Source: Candidatus Poriferisocius sp. | Lineage (GTDB): Bacteria; Actinomycetota; Acidimicrobiia; Acidimicrobiales; Bin134 | Direction: 5' to 3' | Length of the DNA stretch: 64,000 nucleotides | Assembly: GCF_965219815.1 (NCBI RefSeq) | Contig: NZ_OZ244791.1 | Location: forward strand, 2,092,491 to 2,156,490 | Shown: positions 7,146 to 13,598 of the stretch, piece after piece | Numbering within the stretch: position 1 is the stretch's first letter | How the letters are laid out: every line of letters begins with the position of its first letter | Made by a program: the position numbers and the translations under genes | Notes under the pieces: model-generated | Database searches by the model: none | What the model was told of the DNA's origin: nothing | Seen by the model: the letters and a program-made list of their open reading frames with translations, nothing else

Positions 7146-8426
7146 ATGCGCGCTGAACATCAACCACGGGTGGCCGACCAGGAACTCCATGACCTGATAA
7201 GCGAATTGCCCGCGGTCAGCATTGAGGGGCCCAGGGCGGTGGGGAAGACCTGGACGGCCAGTCGGGTAGCCAGCACCGTGTATGCGCTGGACGATCCTGA
7301 CGTCCTCGCCGAGGTGCGGGCTGATTCTCGCCTCCTCACCCGGGGGGAACCGCCCATCCTGATAGACGAGTGGCAGCGGTTCCCCGAGTCATGGGACATC
7401 GTGCGCAGATCTGTGGACCGAGAGTTCAGTCCGGGGAAATTCATCCTCACTGGATCGGCCCGGCCGGAGACTCGTCCCGCCCACTCAGGCGCGGGGCGGA
7501 TTGTCACCTTGCGAATGTGGACAACTGCGCTTGCTGAGCGCCGCCTAGAAGCGTCCACCGTCAGTCTGAAGTCGCTCTTGGCGGGAGATCGCATCGATAT
7601 CGAAGGCCAAAGCGGCCTTGAATTGGAGGACTATGCATCTGAGATTGCCTCCGGAGGGTTTCCCGGCTGGCGAAACACCACTGGTCGAGCGCGAGACCTT
7701 CTTCTCGACGGCTATCTCCACCGGCTGGCCGAGCACGACTTCCCGCTATCTGGCCACCGAGTCCGCAACCCCGCAGCCCTGCGCCGTTGGCTGACTGCCT
7801 ATGCCGCAGCCAGCTCGAGCACAGCTTCCTACGAGACCATCCGCGATGCCGCTACTTCTGGCGAGGGCGACAAGCCGTCAAAGACTACGACCCTCGCTTA
7901 TCGGGACACCCTTGAATCCATGTGGATATTGGAGCCACAACTGGCCTGGTTGCCGGTAGGGAGCCACCTGAGTCGCCTCAAACGAAGTCCCAAACACCAC
8001 TTGGCTGACACAGCATTGGCTGCCCGATTGCTCAATGCGACCGCCGACACCCTGGTCGGCACTGACGCATATCTTCAGGCTGGGTCCGGGCTGGCCGACA
8101 CCGGGTTGCTCGGAGCCTTGTTTGAGTCGATGGTTATCCACGATCTGCGGGTATACGCCCAGTCGGCCGATGCCAGGTTGTCCCATATGCGCACTTGGAA
8201 CGACGAGCGAGAGGTGGACGCGATAATCGAGCACCGGGGACGGGTACTGGCCGTGGAAGTCAAGCTGGGATCAGAAGTGACAGGCCACGACACCCGGCAC
8301 CTGCGATGGCTGCGAGACCGGATCGGGCCAGGACTCCTTGATGCTGTCGTGATTACTTCCGGTCAGGAGGCTTATCGTGATGACGAGGGGATAGCAATCG
8401 TCCCAGCAGGGTTATTGGGGCCCTAG
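7146..8426 (+). CDS. AAA+ ATPase with C-terminal DUF4143 domain
   Basis: Walker A GPRAVGKTW. C-terminal PKHHLADTALAARLL...GALFESMVIHDL...EREVDAII...AVEVKLG matches the DUF4143 pattern. Preceded by a 130-bp AT-rich spacer. Confidence 0.7.
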   Translation: MRAEHQPRVADQELHDLISELPAVSIEGPRAVGKTWTASRVASTVYALDDPDVLAEVRADSRLLTRGEPPILIDEWQRFPESWDIVRRSVDREFSPGKFILTGSARPETRPAHSGAGRIVTLRMWTTALAERRLEASTVSLKSLLAGDRIDIEGQSGLELEDYASEIASGGFPGWRNTTGRARDLLLDGYLHRLAEHDFPLSGHRVRNPAALRRWLTAYAAASSSTASYETIRDAATSGEGDKPSKTTTLAYRDTLESMWILEPQLAWLPVGSHLSRLKRSPKHHLADTALAARLLNATADTLVGTDAYLQAGSGLADTGLLGALFESMVIHDLRVYAQSADARLSHMRTWNDEREVDAIIEHRGRVLAVEVKLGSEVTGHDTRHLRWLRDRIGPGLLDAVVITSGQEAYRDDEGIAIVPAGLLGP

Positions 8427-8438
8427 CTCGCGACCGCG

Positions 8439-9479
8439 TTACCAATTACTCGCCATTTCCCGGAGAGAGGAAACGTCCAATCCCCGGTCATGGCACCACC
8501 ACCAGGCATGGCTGCGACAGGCGGCGTCGGTCAGGTCGTAAGCGTCGGTGGCTTGCCTCAGGTCGTAGACGGAAAGAAACGCCTCGGTATGGGCATAGAC
8601 GATCACACCGAGGTCCCAGCGGTCCTGATCGGCGCTGGCCCATTCCCAGGCATGGGCATAGGTGGCTGTTGCAAGACCCCTCGCCGCCGGAATCACCGTC
8701 TCATTCCAATCGCGTAGGGCCGCAGCCACCTGATCGGTCTCCGCAAGGGTCGGGTCAGGGACATTGGGGTTGTCGCGGGCGGAAAGGTAGGCATGCAGTT
8801 TGGCGGTGTATTCGTCTTTGTCCAACAGAGCGGACTCAAGGGCAGTGCTCAAAGCACGCCGGGCCGAGGCCAGGGCAGGAGGCGCATCGGGAGGCGGCCA
8901 TAACACTGGGACCGGAGAAGCGTGGGCCAATCCGAGGCCGTGCGAGCTGTAGGCAGAAGCATGGTGGGCAAACTCCATTACCGCGTGGCTGGCGAAGTGC
9001 AGGCCTGAGGGCCAGGGTGGTCCAGATTCACAGGATTCAGACAACCGGATGTTGTGGTCGTACAGAATCTCGTCTGGCGCTTCCGGCATGTCGGGGTCGT
9101 TGGCACATTCGTCGAGAGCCAGATCCCACAAGACTGAATATGCGTTGCGGCACAGTTCTTCGGGTTCGAAGGAGAATCCCAATCGGCCCACCATCTCCCC
9201 CAGCAATTCCCCGGCCAGGGCCACGCCGAAGTCATCGTCCGTCGATCCCGCTTCAAGACGGCGAGCATCCTTCGGGTCGCCTATCTGAGGATGGTTGTCA
9301 CACGCTTGGAGAGCCAGTGACGGCATCTTGTCGCAGGCATAGGCGACCTTGTCGGACCACTCTGTTCGGCTGTAGTCGGCAAATGAAGCCGAGGCGGCTT
9401 CCTTCGCAGCCTCCACCAACCATCTGGGCCTAGGTGGCGAGTCAAATGTCGGGAGTATTCTCAGTGCGGTCTTATCCAT
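8439..9479 (-). CDS. hypothetical protein (346 aa, no recognisable domain)
   Basis: Long ORF with coding-like GC3. Its upstream region shares a conserved motif with the methylase gene (see repeats at 9498 and 11545). Confidence 0.5.
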   Translation of the reverse strand: MDKTALRILPTFDSPPRPRWLVEAAKEAASASFADYSRTEWSDKVAYACDKMPSLALQACDNHPQIGDPKDARRLEAGSTDDDFGVALAGELLGEMVGRLGFSFEPEELCRNAYSVLWDLALDECANDPDMPEAPDEILYDHNIRLSESCESGPPWPSGLHFASHAVMEFAHHASAYSSHGLGLAHASPVPVLWPPPDAPPALASARRALSTALESALLDKDEYTAKLHAYLSARDNPNVPDPTLAETDQVAAALRDWNETVIPAARGLATATYAHAWEWASADQDRWDLGVIVYAHTEAFLSVYDLRQATDAYDLTDAACRSHAWWWCHDRGLDVSSLREMASNW

Positions 9480-9497
9480 GCCCCCACCCTAAGCAGG

Positions 9498-9521
9498 GGG
9501 TATGACAGTTTCTGTCCTGAC
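9498..9521. repeat. direct repeat copy 1 (GGGTATGACAGTTTCTGTCCTGAC)
   Basis: Matches 11545-11567 at 22 of 24 aligned positions. Sits 18 nt upstream of the start of the 346-aa gene. Confidence 0.65.
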
Positions 9522-9542
9522 CTGTCTAGCCAACCAGCAAGC

Positions 9543-10433
9543 TCACAAAGGCCGTAAGCGGGATAACAGAGCTGATTCAAAGTGTTCTCGGCTGACAGTG
9601 TCAGCGGCCTGGAGTCTCTTGTTGGAATCCTCCAAGGTGAGTACCTCCCAGTGGTCTCGAGCTAGCTGCCATGTGCCTGCGGCTGAGCGTTCCAAACTGG
9701 TGACAAGCCAGATGATGTCGCCTTCGTTGAGGTCTTGGCTGGGTTGATCACTGGTGCCGCCGACGGCGTTGAAGAACGGGCGGTCCACCGCGACGGCGAG
9801 CTTGGCACCCCAGCGACGCAGTGTTGGTGCCTTGATTTCCAGTTGTGGCATCAGGCGTTTGGCGCTTGAGGAACGCCAGTCGGGACGGCGGACCTCCGAT
9901 GGGTAGGGAGGCGGTTCGTGGGTGTCGTCTCGCAGCGCTTCGAACTCACTGGTCATCCCCTTGCCAGAGAAATAGACGGCCTGGATCTCCAAACCATGCC
10001 ATCTCAAATTCTCGCCTTGTACATGGGCAACGATCATGTCGATCTTGCCGGCAGGCTTGTTCGTCTCCGTGCTCCGCATGAAGGGCACTTCACCTGCCAC
10101 TTGGGTTTCCTGTGTCGGAAAGCCGGCCACTTCAGCTAACCACCGGAGTACAAGGCTCTTTTCCTCAAACCGGCGTGGGCAGGTGATGACCGGCTCATCT
10201 GCTGGTTGGCCTAGACGGTGGTCGTTGTCCTCTGTGTAGCGCTGGATGGAGCAAACGCCCCCCTTCTTTGAGCACGTTGGATGGTTGGGCTGGAATGGAC
10301 ACGTTGGAGGCTCAGCATCGGATTCACCTAGTGCATGCTTGGCGAAGACAACCCGCTGGGTCGCGGCGAGAGAGGTGAAGTCCTGTCCATACCACTCCGC
10401 AATTCCGTAGCGCGTCCTAAGTTCGTCTGGCAT
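9543..10433 (-). CDS. NotI-family (PD-(D/E)XK with N-terminal Cys4 site) type II restriction endonuclease
   Basis: N-terminus IAEWYGQDF...TCPF...CSKKGGVCSI...ITCPRRF parallels my memory of NotI (IAEFFG...TCPF...GVCVV...VCPNRA). LEIQAVYFSG parallels NotI LEIQTMDFHG. Confidence 0.65.
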   Translation of the reverse strand: MPDELRTRYGIAEWYGQDFTSLAATQRVVFAKHALGESDAEPPTCPFQPNHPTCSKKGGVCSIQRYTEDNDHRLGQPADEPVITCPRRFEEKSLVLRWLAEVAGFPTQETQVAGEVPFMRSTETNKPAGKIDMIVAHVQGENLRWHGLEIQAVYFSGKGMTSEFEALRDDTHEPPPYPSEVRRPDWRSSSAKRLMPQLEIKAPTLRRWGAKLAVAVDRPFFNAVGGTSDQPSQDLNEGDIIWLVTSLERSAAGTWQLARDHWEVLTLEDSNKRLQAADTVSREHFESALLSRLRPL

Positions 10434-10447
10434 CAGAATGGGCCGGG

Positions 10448-11527
10448 TCAGATGAAGACAGTTCGTCGGGTAATGACGAGTTCGGATATCTGAGCGTGGT
10501 GGGTGTTTTTCATGACTACTTCAACGGCGTGGAAACCGTACTCTGCAATGAGTTCGGCGATCTCTGGCGAACGGTCGTAGGTCATCAGAAAGTTCACTGG
10601 GGATTGCGCCAGGATCTTGAAGAGTCGTCGGTGGTCTAACTGGTTGTGGCTGTAGAGACGCCTGCCGGCTCGTTTGCCGCCTGCGGTGTACGGAGGGTCA
10701 ATGAAGGCGACCGTACCGGGCACCTCGGCAATGACCTCTAAGAGGTCAAGCCCATCGGCTTCGCAGAAGTTGATCTGCGGCGCGTGGGCTTCGATATTTC
10801 GCAATCGCTGGATGATGGTGTCGGGATACCAACGAGATGCGAGACCCTTGTTGTTTTCCCCTGACTTTGTTAAGGCAGCCCCAGGGGCGAGGATGCCACC
10901 GCGTCGAGTTCGGTTTAGGACCAAGGTGCGGAACCCGTGCTCGAGCAGCCCTCTGGGGGCTTGGTCAGCCAGAGCCGAAACAGATTCGCGTGTCGGTTCG
11001 AACTCAGATACGAGGTGACACAACTCGGCGTTGTGGCGTAGCGCCGCGTGCCAGAAAGCAGCCACATCGTGGTCTAGTTCGGCCATGAAGCATTGTTCGA
11101 CCAAGCTCTCGCACACCGCCGTGAGAGCAACTATGCCTCCGCCGCAGAATGGCTCAATGAGCGTCCTCGGTCTGGGCTGAATGGGTGCGAGCCAAGCCCG
11201 TATGTGGGGAATTAGCCAGGTCTTTCCGCCTGGGTAGCGCAGTGGTGAGCGCTGAGGCACCGAGGCAACATTGACAGCCGGGATGGGGGAGATTGGGAAG
11301 CCAGGGCCGTAGCCAGGCAAGGACGATTCGGTCTCGCTAGGCTCCCTTTGCGCCTTCATGGCGTTCGCGGCCTTGGGTGAGTCGACCTGCGCCTTTGCAC
11401 TGCTAACCAGCATGTCACGAGGACGATCCTCATCGGTGGACCTTTCAGCGGCATGGTGCGCGCTGCCTAGACGCTTTGGTCCCATCGCGGGAATCTGCAT
11501 TTGATCGATCCTCGGTTTATCCGTCAT
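10448..11527 (-). CDS. D12-class (Dam-like) DNA methyltransferase, probable N6-adenine
   Basis: RYPGGK, EPFCGGG (motif I) and FIDPPY (motif IV). About 95-aa low-complexity N-terminal extension, so the true start may be further in. Confidence 0.8.
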   Translation of the reverse strand: MTDKPRIDQMQIPAMGPKRLGSAHHAAERSTDEDRPRDMLVSSAKAQVDSPKAANAMKAQREPSETESSLPGYGPGFPISPIPAVNVASVPQRSPLRYPGGKTWLIPHIRAWLAPIQPRPRTLIEPFCGGGIVALTAVCESLVEQCFMAELDHDVAAFWHAALRHNAELCHLVSEFEPTRESVSALADQAPRGLLEHGFRTLVLNRTRRGGILAPGAALTKSGENNKGLASRWYPDTIIQRLRNIEAHAPQINFCEADGLDLLEVIAEVPGTVAFIDPPYTAGGKRAGRRLYSHNQLDHRRLFKILAQSPVNFLMTYDRSPEIAELIAEYGFHAVEVVMKNTHHAQISELVITRRTVFI

Positions 11528-11544
11528 TACCCGAGATTAAGGAT

Positions 11545-11567
11545 GGGTATGACAGTTTCAGTCCGAC
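11545..11567. repeat. direct repeat copy 2 (GGGTATGACAGTTTCAGTCCGAC)
   Basis: Lies 17 nt upstream of the methylase start and overlaps the stop codon (11558-11560) of the SAM methyltransferase gene. Copy 1 is 2,047 bp away. Confidence 0.65.
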
Positions 11568-12379
11568 GGGCAGACCCCGATCACCTCGCCGTTTATCCAG
11601 GCCCAGAAGCCGTCGGGCTGGACGGCCCATTGGCGGAAGGCGTCGGAGATTTCCTGTAGTTCATCGCGGGTGGCGAATCCGTTGTTGACTGCGTGCTCGG
11701 CAAAATCGCTTTCGATTGCCCGAACCGCCCACATCTCGCCCCACACAGTCCGACCCTCGTGGTCGGTGTGGGCAGTGGTGGTGGCAGTGGCCTCGATATC
11801 GGTGAAACCGGCTTCAATTGCCCACGACAGCAGATAGCGACCGGCGTCGGCCTCACCGCCGTTGGCGGTCGCAACCTGATGGTAGAGGTCTCGCCAGCGC
11901 TCGATGGCCGGAAACACGGGAGCGTGGATCATGGTGGCGTAGTCGGAGTCGCGCACGGCCACCAGCCCGCCGGGACGCAGTACTCGCCGGGCCTCCCGCA
12001 AGGCCCGGACCGGATCGGAAAGGTGCTGGAGCACCTGATGGGCGTACACCACGTCGAAGCTGGCGTCGTCCCACGGCAGCTCGTAGACCGAGCCGACCTC
12101 AAACGATGCGTTGGAGAGGCCGCAGTCGTCGGCATGGGCACGGGCCGCGTCCACCACTTCAGCCGACAGGTCTAGGCCCACCACCCGGCCAGCGCGGCGG
12201 GCCAGACCAGCGGTGATGGTGCCCGAGCCGCAACCGATGTCGAGCACCTCGGCATCGGGTCTCAGTCGAGGCAGCAAGAAGGTGGCGCATGACTCGGCCG
12301 TGCGCCGGGAGTGCCATCCCACGATTACCTGGTGGTAACCGTGGGTGTAAGTCTCGCCCTCGGGCTGTTGTTCAGCCAA
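11558..12379 (-). CDS. class I SAM-dependent methyltransferase
   Basis: VLDIGCGSGTIT motif I and the following acidic loop VGLDLS. 8-nt overlap with the P450 gene. Confidence 0.8.
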   Translation of the reverse strand: MAEQQPEGETYTHGYHQVIVGWHSRRTAESCATFLLPRLRPDAEVLDIGCGSGTITAGLARRAGRVVGLDLSAEVVDAARAHADDCGLSNASFEVGSVYELPWDDASFDVVYAHQVLQHLSDPVRALREARRVLRPGGLVAVRDSDYATMIHAPVFPAIERWRDLYHQVATANGGEADAGRYLLSWAIEAGFTDIEATATTTAHTDHEGRTVWGEMWAVRAIESDFAEHAVNNGFATRDELQEISDAFRQWAVQPDGFWAWINGEVIGVCPSD

Positions 12380-13598
12380 CGGGTTCAGGAGTCAAGAACG
12401 CGTCGAGGCGGTCGGGTCCGTTGGCCCAGAACACCGGGGTCTTCTTGCGAACGCATCCGGGAGCCAGTTCGGCAGATGCCACCCGGTCCAAGAACACCTC
12501 CAAGGCCACCCGGCCCTCCAGGCGGGCCAGGCTGGCGCCGGGGCAAATGTGGGGTCCGCCGCCGAAGGCGATGTGGTCTTTGGGACGGTCCCGGTCGAGC
12601 CGGAACTCGTCGGGGTGGTCGAAGTAGTCCTCGTCCCGGTTGGCCGACGACACGCCGAACACGATCTTGTCGCCGCTGCGCATCGGGGCGCCGAACACGT
12701 CGGTGTCCGCAGTGCAGTCCCGAATGAGCATGTGGGCAGGGGAGTCGATCCGCAGCGATTCCTCCACTGCCCGCTCAGAGAGGCTCCGGTCGGCCTTGAG
12801 GGTGGCGAACAACTCGGGGTCGCCGATGATGCGCCACAGCAGGTTGCCGATCAGGTGCCGAGTGGTCTCGTTGCCCGACATGATGAGGAACGCAAGCTGG
12901 GTGCGTATCTCCACGTCGGTGAGGCGATGGCCCTCGATCTCGGTAGTGATGAGCCGGGTGACCAGGTCGTCGGGGGCCTCGTCGCTGGCCCGCCGCTCGG
13001 CGATCAGCGCGTCGATGTAGGCGCAGAACTCGGGGTGGGCGCCGGCCAGGCCCTCGCCCCGCTCGTTGCGGTTGGTGCGGGGGTAGTCGCCCAGTACCAC
13101 CTCGTCGGTCCAGGCGTGGAACTGCTCCCAATCCTCGGCGGGCACCCCGATGAGGTGGGATATCACGTTGATGGGCACCGGGGTTATGAACTCGGCCACC
13201 AGCTCGCCGTGGCCTCGCTCCAAGATCGGGTCGAGATACTGGTGGCACAGATCCCGCACGAACGGCTCGGCCCGCATCGACTTGTGATGGGCCACCGTCG
13301 CGTTGATGATCCTTCGCACCTTGCCGTGGCGGGGTTCGGGGATCTCGCTGATGAGCTTCTCCTCTTCGGGCACCACCACGCCGGGATCGCGGAAGCTGGA
13401 CACGAAGGTCTCCACGTCTCTGGTGGCCTCTAGGACATGGTCGAACTTGGTGAGGTACCAGCCGGTGGGAGTCCGAGCTACCGGGCACTCCGACCGCAGC
13501 TCGGCCAGCGTGTCGATGGGCACCTCCTCGGGATAGCCGAACGGGTCGAATGCCATGTCCTCGTCGGAAGGCGTGAGCGGATCAGACGTCAAGCTCAT
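12372..13598 (-). CDS. cytochrome P450
   Basis: Heme-thiolate loop FGGGPHICPGASLAR, I-helix SGNETT, ExxR (ESLR). Confidence 0.9.
   Translation of the reverse strand: MSLTSDPLTPSDEDMAFDPFGYPEEVPIDTLAELRSECPVARTPTGWYLTKFDHVLEATRDVETFVSSFRDPGVVVPEEEKLISEIPEPRHGKVRRIINATVAHHKSMRAEPFVRDLCHQYLDPILERGHGELVAEFITPVPINVISHLIGVPAEDWEQFHAWTDEVVLGDYPRTNRNERGEGLAGAHPEFCAYIDALIAERRASDEAPDDLVTRLITTEIEGHRLTDVEIRTQLAFLIMSGNETTRHLIGNLLWRIIGDPELFATLKADRSLSERAVEESLRIDSPAHMLIRDCTADTDVFGAPMRSGDKIVFGVSSANRDEDYFDHPDEFRLDRDRPKDHIAFGGGPHICPGASLARLEGRVALEVFLDRVASAELAPGCVRKKTPVFWANGPDRLDAFLTPEPVG

Follow-up and report, generated by a model that had tools for sequence, protein, structure and literature searches.

What is a direct repeat doing on either side of a restriction–modification (R-M) gene pair? 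The question is raised by a 64,000-nt stretch of the genome of a Candidatus Poriferisocius sp., an uncultured sponge symbiont, in which a type II R-M operon, made up of a D12/Dam-class DNA methyltransferase gene (M) and a NotI-family endonuclease gene (R), is followed on the minus strand by a 346-aa orphan gene (orf346), with one copy of a short repeat ahead of M and another ahead of orf346. The window below means this whole stretch, and positions refer to it unless a genome, contig or locus label is given; the genome from which it comes is labelled G000, and the locus was compared in 40 Candidatus Poriferisocius congeners. A first-pass annotation of this DNA had offered two explanations: the R-M pair inserted as a 2-kb cassette with duplication of its target, or one promoter-operator was duplicated so that orf346 and the R-M operon are co-regulated. 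Judging from sequence, we put at about 80% the probability that both copies are PafBC-type (RecA-NDp) DNA-damage promoters, one for M-R and the other for orf346.

Extent and context of the repeat

Copy 1, GGGTATGACAGTTTCTGTCCTGAC, occupies 9498-9521, in the gap that separates the stop of R (9543) from the start of orf346 (9479). Copy 2, GGGTATGACAGTTTCAGTCC-GAC, i.e. GGGTATGACAGTTTCAGTCCGAC, occupies 11545-11567; the start of M (11527) lies 18 nt downstream of it, and its final bases overlap with the TGA (11558-11560) of a class I S-adenosylmethionine (SAM)-methyltransferase gene. Start to start, the copies lie 2,047 bp apart, and their identity comprises an exact 15-mer, 19 of 20 positions without a gap, or 23 of 24 with one gap. 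In coordinates and sequence, in enclosing exactly the endonuclease and methylase open reading frames, and in overlapping that TGA, the repeat is as the first-pass annotation had described it. Its length needs qualification: the 23/24-bp match is present in the window, but relatives keep the 15-nt core alone (9498-9512, 11545-11559) and not the CWGTCC-GAC extension, which in copy 2 codes for part of the SAM-methyltransferase and in copy 1 is specific to the lineage. The G+C content of 48-50% that had been counted by hand over two lines does not hold for the cassette overall, which is lighter than the genome: M and R stand at 58.5% and orf346 at 60.8%, whereas the genome has 64.8% and the genes on either side have 66%.

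The exact 15-mer occurs only twice in the window, and in 64 kb a match of that length is in itself nothing unusual; the 17-mer with at most two mismatches occurs only twice in the whole 3.74-Mb genome. A chance origin is nonetheless ruled out by position, orientation, ATG spacing and conservation in congeners, since about 12 of these keep the 15-nt core at both positions despite coding sequences that have diverged to 50-90%. Also rejected was an RNA hairpin or terminator: the stem GACAG-AAA-CTGTC occurs only in copy 1 of G000 and its nearest relative, the left arm varies elsewhere, and no terminator was predicted at the copy 1 stem.

Promoter-like architecture of the two copies

On the gene strand, both copies read GAAACTGTCAYACCC, followed by a spacer (5 nt for M, 6 nt for orf346), a TANNNT hexamer, a further 6 nt and the ATG. 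The published PafBC consensus is tGTCgg(N10)tA(N3)T, in which a -26 element spanning -23 to -28 is combined with a SigA -10 while a -35 is absent (PMC8635444), and RNA polymerase reads such promoters by 'sigma adaptation' (PMC8635444; PMC6789036). In mycobacteria and other actinobacteria, PafBC-dependent promoters are also called RecA-NDp promoters (Gamulin 2004, cited in PMC6789036). The orf346 promoter, TGTCAT-N10-TAGGGT-N6-ATG, is an exact fit to the N10 consensus, and the M promoter, TGTCAT-N9-TAATCT-N6-ATG, fits with N9. The invariant GTC of the -26 element is present in both copies, with TGTC[AG] in every congener M and orf346 promoter, and there is no -35; the sequence upstream of GAAAC is not conserved between genomes. 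The weaker similarity reported earlier between the repeat and each start codon (9 of 17 positions) is right once the two regions are anchored on their -10 hexamers (3/5 + 3/6 + 3/6). The architecture implies that the M-R and orf346 mRNAs would be leaderless, starting at the ATG. The idea that GAAAC might be the -35 of an extracytoplasmic function (ECF) sigma promoter was set aside, since the -10 has the TANNNT form of SigA promoters and the elements are spaced as in -26/-10 promoters.

The features concerned, together with the genes around them, are as follows.

12372-13598, minus strand: P450, in an operon with the SAM-methyltransferase gene
11558-12379, minus strand: class I SAM-methyltransferase, a genus core gene whose stop abuts or overlaps the M promoter
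11545-11559, minus strand: extended -26 element of the putative M-R promoter, gene strand GAAACTGTCATACCC, core TGTCAT from 11554 down to 11549, 5' end overlapping the SAM-methyltransferase TGA
11534-11539, minus strand: putative -10 hexamer TAATCT of the M-R promoter, 6 nt (11528-11533) from the ATG at 11527
10448-11527, minus strand: M, D12/Dam-class DNA methyltransferase, 359 aa (PF02086; TIGR00571; PADLOC PD-Lambda-5_B 4e-48, MTase_II)
9543-10433, minus strand: R, NotI-family restriction endonuclease, 296 aa (PF12183, 1e-45)
9498-9512, minus strand: extended -26 element of the putative orf346 promoter, gene strand GAAACTGTCATACCC, core TGTCAT from 9507 down to 9502
9486-9491, minus strand: putative -10 hexamer TAGGGT of the orf346 promoter, 6 nt (9480-9485) from the ATG at 9479
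8439-9479, minus strand: orf346, genus-restricted all-alpha orphan with no family match and its own putative PafBC-type promoter

R starts 14 nt past the M stop and has no promoter of its own. Between 8300 and 12500 no match to a sigma-70 -35/-10 promoter was found. Because no terminator is predicted at either the SAM-methyltransferase/M or the R/orf346 junction, read-through is possible from the P450/SAM-methyltransferase operon and from R into orf346.

PafBC-type sites across the genome and the regulator

The pattern TGTC[AG]N10-11TANNNT occurs 122 times in G000, and 57 of these sites have a start codon 4-9 nt past the -10. By comparison, 11 controls with a permuted -26 element gave 18-56 sites, of which 2-13 had a start codon so placed, and other spacings gave 28-46 and 4-10, so that the enrichment is specific to this spacing. 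Of the 57 sites, 50 have 6 or 7 nt from the -10 to the start codon, the signature of leaderless transcripts; the spacing between the two elements is canonical in 40 and one shorter in 17. One site (AAACTGTCACTGG-N-TAGAGT) lies 60 nt upstream of recA, which was located by its Pfam family and has a leader. Other sites stand before genes that we take, from their N-terminal sequences, to be uvrA, a uvrD-like gene, ruvC (AAAACTGTCGTACCC), dnaG, dnaX, an alkB-like gene and a DUF5131 gene, and, with a leader, before what are presumably an Lhr-like helicase gene and gyrA, recognised in the same way. Many paralogues of about 400 aa also carry such sites; by N-terminal sequence only, they resemble the HNH/DUF222 13E12 family.

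The regulator that such promoters would need is encoded in the same genome. G000 has exactly two WYL genes, adjacent and overlapping, of 321 aa and 325 aa, which encode PafB (WYL+WCX) and PafC (HTH_PafC+WYL+WCX) and lie about 0.7 Mb from the M-R and orf346 targets. In the PDB, PafB is matched best by the M. smegmatis PafB chain in the complex of RNA polymerase with PafBC (7p5x, 4.9e-24). In that chain R46 and R50 read the GTC (PMC8635444), and arginine stands at both of the aligned positions in the G000 protein. By analogy with mycobacteria, the PafBC heterodimer, activated by single-stranded DNA, would occupy the -26 element and bridge to sigma region 4; such activation has been described (PMC11804915). 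RNA polymerase with SigA would then be recruited to both promoters during DNA damage or foreign DNA invasion, and the methylase, the endonuclease and orf346 would rise together with the repair genes. The M-R operon and orf346 are thus probably switched on together when damaged or foreign DNA is sensed.

Several points weigh against assigning both copies to this promoter class. The spacing in the M promoter is N9 and not the canonical N10, yet 17 of the 57 genome sites share it. A matrix built from the 55 other sites gives a-A-A/G-C/T-TGTC-A-C-(T/c)-(G), which makes AAAC and TGTCAY part of the general motif but leaves out G at -5 and ACCC over +6 to +9; five positions common to both copies (G-5, A+6, C+7..+9) accordingly lie outside the genome-wide motif. 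Identity at all 15 positions is found in 3 of 7,381 site pairs, and at 14 of 15 in a further 5, so the match owes something to a cause other than the generic PafBC consensus, be it common descent, gene conversion or a sub-class of sites; the ruvC site (AAAACTGTCGTACCC) agrees with both copies at 13 of 15 positions. Finally, a restriction enzyme whose promoter responds to damage alone is physiologically awkward unless there is also some basal expression.

Conservation of the putative promoters in congeners

In about 16 congeners, every M and every full-length orf346 is preceded by this architecture, the -10 lying exactly 6 nt from the ATG regardless of the flanking sequence. The -26 element upstream of M is kept in all 15 M-bearing congeners examined, and its -10 in relatives reads TAMTCT, TATTCT or TAACCT; that of orf346 reads TAGGGT, TATGGT or TAGTGT. 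M carries its copy behind at least seven unrelated upstream sequences, and when the M-R(-346) block is compared with other genomes, across at least seven upstream contexts (11545-11559; L015-L025, L083), homology breaks off at the 5' edge of GAAAC. G008 is the most divergent genome, and there the 15-mer has altered flanks, but both genes retain TGTCR-N11-TANNNT-N6-ATG; this retention of the core with changed flanks indicates that the identity of the copies reflects selection on a promoter sub-class.

The Y of TGTCAY (9502, 11549) follows clades: it is T in both copies of G000, G045 and G009, C in both copies of G018, G011, G053 and most other genomes, and mixed in G006, G022 and G023. Such co-variation may reflect gene conversion between adjacent promoters or parallel change, and, from the clade-wise Y, common descent or gene conversion possibly also lies behind the identity of the copies, besides selection, these causes not being separable. 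The co-regulation proposed in the second of the first-pass explanations is supported, now specified as of the PafBC type; the two promoters may have arisen by duplication of one another or by converging on the PafBC consensus.

In congeners, the extended form GAAACTGTCAYWCCC also stands before ruvC, a sbcD-like gene, a conserved protein of 131-147 aa and an N6/N4 methylase. The 131-147-aa protein (…LAFAE.ARQLG…FRSPPR..GRRR…) has the extended motif as GAAACTGTCACWCCC in leaderless geometry in six genomes (L038, L052, L054, L055, L056, L058).

A dedicated controller as an unlikely alternative

The 15-mer could instead serve as the operator for a controller dedicated to the R-M system, whether a C-protein-like factor, orf346 or the N-terminal extension of M. 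R-M systems commonly control their own transcription, the identity between the two copies goes beyond the generic PafBC core, and copy 1 contains the inverted repeat GACAG-N3-CTGTC. The locus, however, has no controller (C) gene and no room for one (gaps of 14 and 63 nt). The conserved core lacks symmetry, and relatives do not keep the left arm of the inverted repeat; control by a C protein at a C-box was rejected on these grounds. The same extended motif, moreover, precedes ruvC, the sbcD-like gene and others in genomes without orf346, and in G005 without M as well, so that its binder is neither M nor orf346, and orf346 has no recognisable DNA-binding domain or fold. Taken together, these observations make a dedicated controller improbable.

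Possible insertion, deletion and recombination at the locus

The site that the first-pass annotation had suggested looking for, a methyltransferase stop directly before the 346-aa gene, exists in one genome. In G054 (L081:4801-4815), the SAM-methyltransferase stop TAA overlaps a single hybrid motif, followed by an orf346-type -10 and orf346, with no M or R. The G054 orf346 is sister to that of G018, an M-R-346 genome, with support of 100 and inside the carrier clade, and the G054 SAM-methyltransferase groups with those of G018, G053 and G022; both are quick single-gene trees, and recombination within the genus is possible. The junction of stop and motif in G054 is the SAM-M junction of G000, G045, G006, G023 and G053. 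Because G054 is nested among M-R-346 carriers in both trees, we favour, by roughly two to one, a later deletion of M-R by recombination between the two 15-bp repeats, which as a side effect of their promoter role would offer a substrate for deletion. The G000-type junction itself looks like a deletion that would have removed the convergent gene present in most genomes and joined TGA to GAAAC: G046 retains a stump of about 60 nt of the convergent gene, and G015 has about 690 nt between the SAM-methyltransferase stop and the M promoter.

Could the repeat then be primarily a recombination site, serving to excise, lose or reshuffle the M-R and orf346 modules, with its promoter look secondary? The end-points of the G054 deletion lie within both copies, module order is permuted in G008, and the block homology always stops at the edge of GAAAC described above. 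No recombinase lies nearby, however, the motif also stands at housekeeping repair genes that do not move, the strict spacing to -10 and ATG is unneeded for recombination, and the deletion is seen in only 1 of 40 genomes; we regard this reading as highly improbable.

Least probable of all, and only marginally credible, is the first of the first-pass explanations, in which the R-M pair entered as a 2-kb cassette with target duplication at an ancestral site of SAM-methyltransferase, one motif and orf346: the repeats do bracket exactly M and R, G054 has one hybrid motif and neither gene, and M and R are lower in G+C than their flanks, but M has its own copy and an M-specific -10 region in those unrelated contexts, three genomes (G020, G019 on contig 30, and G014) have R-M-only loci without orf346 in which the motif occurs once and not after R, nine island-free genomes have the SAM-methyltransferase stop followed by a convergent gene and no motif, the nesting of G054 means that the single-copy empty site is not ancestral, and the order in G008 is 346-M-R. 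R-M genes accompanied by a single repeat had been named in the first pass itself as evidence against insertion.

orf346 and variation of the island

With the preferred assignment to PafBC-type promoters, orf346 would be damage-induced. It occurs once per genome in 14 of the 40 genomes and lies beside M in 13 of them, usually downstream of M-R and in G008 upstream; the exception is G054, where it adjoins the SAM-methyltransferase gene with no M or R. No family match was found in Pfam, NCBIfam, PADLOC or PHROGs, and homologues number 23 in 5.8e9 proteins and 5 in 1.84e9 representatives, all within the genus. Its AlphaFold2 (AF2) model is all-alpha and confident, with a predicted local distance difference test (pLDDT) score of 86.7, and a Foldseek search returned nothing below E = 0.1 in PDB or BFVD. 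The R-M linkage and the shared promoter type are the only handles on this protein.

Among the congeners, the NotI-family endonuclease is internally deleted or reduced to a stump in six: L004 (G006), L024 (G023), L025 (G011), L018 (G017), L082 (G053) and L019 (G015). In five of these six, the methylase, orf346 and both promoters are intact. G017 has, in addition, ATC in place of the M start codon, and its M can be aligned only from residue 53 onwards; G015 also has a truncated orf346. At L020:1543-7491 (G008), the order is P450, orf346, M, R and SAM-methyltransferase, with the island separating the P450 and SAM-methyltransferase genes, which otherwise overlap. A direct repeat of 29 nt (ATCCCCGGGGTTGACGGGCGGCACCCCGG) follows closely on the P450 gene.

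M itself has a low-complexity N-terminal extension of about 90 aa before the D12 domain (11258-11527, minus strand), with KPRI[DE]QMQI near the N-terminus conserved in congeners. Convergent with orf346 lies an AAA_14/DUF4143 ATPase gene (7146-8426, plus strand) that matches the PADLOC candidate system PDC-S01 (8e-75); it is found beside the island only in G000 and G006, and therefore lies outside the conserved M-R-346 block.

PafBC-type promoter motifs at other methyltransferase and defence genes

A PafBC-type promoter motif lies directly upstream of 8 of the 23 DNA-methyltransferase genes in G000, against 0-1 of 23 with permuted controls. In a Fisher test against about 3,500 genes, with the gene total estimated and sites treated as genes, this corresponds to p ~5e-7. 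The eight methyltransferases are of the C5, N6_N4, Eco57I/TaqI-like and D12 types, and the same promoter type also precedes genes for a SIR2-like (SIR2_2) protein, a Cas_GSU0053 (type I-U Cas) protein and a SNF2 helicase. The sites, listed by position on G000:C1 with the strand in brackets, are 238779(-), 3102671(-), 3281096(+), 2392454(+), 1683197(-), 11942(-) and 3182318(-), and also 2262348(-), 1167492(+) and 3522116(+).

Comparison with known systems and biological meaning

The two promoters share with the PafBC promoters of mycobacteria and other actinobacteria a bipartite, non-palindromic layout, with GTC at about -26, 9-10 nt to a TANNNT SigA -10 and no -35, a pafB and pafC pair with the conserved GTC-reading arginines, and the same motif at recA and repair genes. 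They differ in their local consensus, aAAC-TGTCAC-(TGG or ACC) in place of tGTCgg, in belonging to a set of sites most of which are leaderless, and in their putative targets, a type II R-M operon and an orphan gene. The feature would belong to a known kind of promoter, and its interest comes mainly from the genes attached to it.

Control of type II R-M systems by C proteins acting at a C-box resembles the present case in relying on a short conserved element near the promoter of the R-M genes, by which expression would be timed or limited; here, in contrast, there is no C gene, the element is non-palindromic, and the same element stands at repair genes. Insertion of R-M systems with long target duplications has been described for Helicobacter pylori, where, as here, an R-M pair is bracketed by a direct repeat and a related genome has one copy and no R-M; unlike those cases, the repeat in the symbiont is 15 bp and lies in each gene's own promoter, R-M-only loci are single-copy, and the single-copy genome is derived.

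The closest parallels in regulatory logic lie among WYL-family regulators. DdaA, a WYL activator of Moraxellaceae, controls DNA-damage-response genes together with R-M and CRISPR defence genes (PMC12392091), and BrxR and CapW are WYL regulators next to defence systems, acting as locally encoded repressors (PMC9122601, PMC9122588). All three share with PafBC, in the role proposed here, membership of the WYL family and the coupling of defence expression to damage by a DNA-damage-sensing regulator. DdaA differs in phylum, regulator lineage and motif, and BrxR and CapW are local repressors, whereas PafBC here is encoded about 0.7 Mb away and would be a global activator. In the literature searched, we found no paper on PafBC control of R-M or methyltransferase genes.

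The presence of this promoter type at 8 of 23 DNA-methyltransferase genes and at the genes for the SIR2-like protein, the type I-U Cas protein and the SNF2 helicase invites a bolder proposal, which we advance tentatively and at somewhat less than even odds: besides repair, PafBC in this sponge-symbiont lineage might be a master switch for a large share of the R-M and defence arsenal, an actinobacterial counterpart of DdaA, and orf346 might be a new damage-induced partner of the R-M system that, for example, limits self-restriction or processes restriction breaks.

Our analysis thus replaces a mobile-element reading of the repeat with a regulatory one, and would place a type II R-M operon and an orphan gene in the PafBC regulon. 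If this is true, restriction and methylation would rise with single-stranded DNA, whether it stems from damage or from the entry of a phage or plasmid, much as in the coupling described for DdaA (PMC12392091). The occurrence of this promoter type at a third of the genome's DNA-methyltransferase genes points to a general wiring principle in a symbiont of a phage-rich host.

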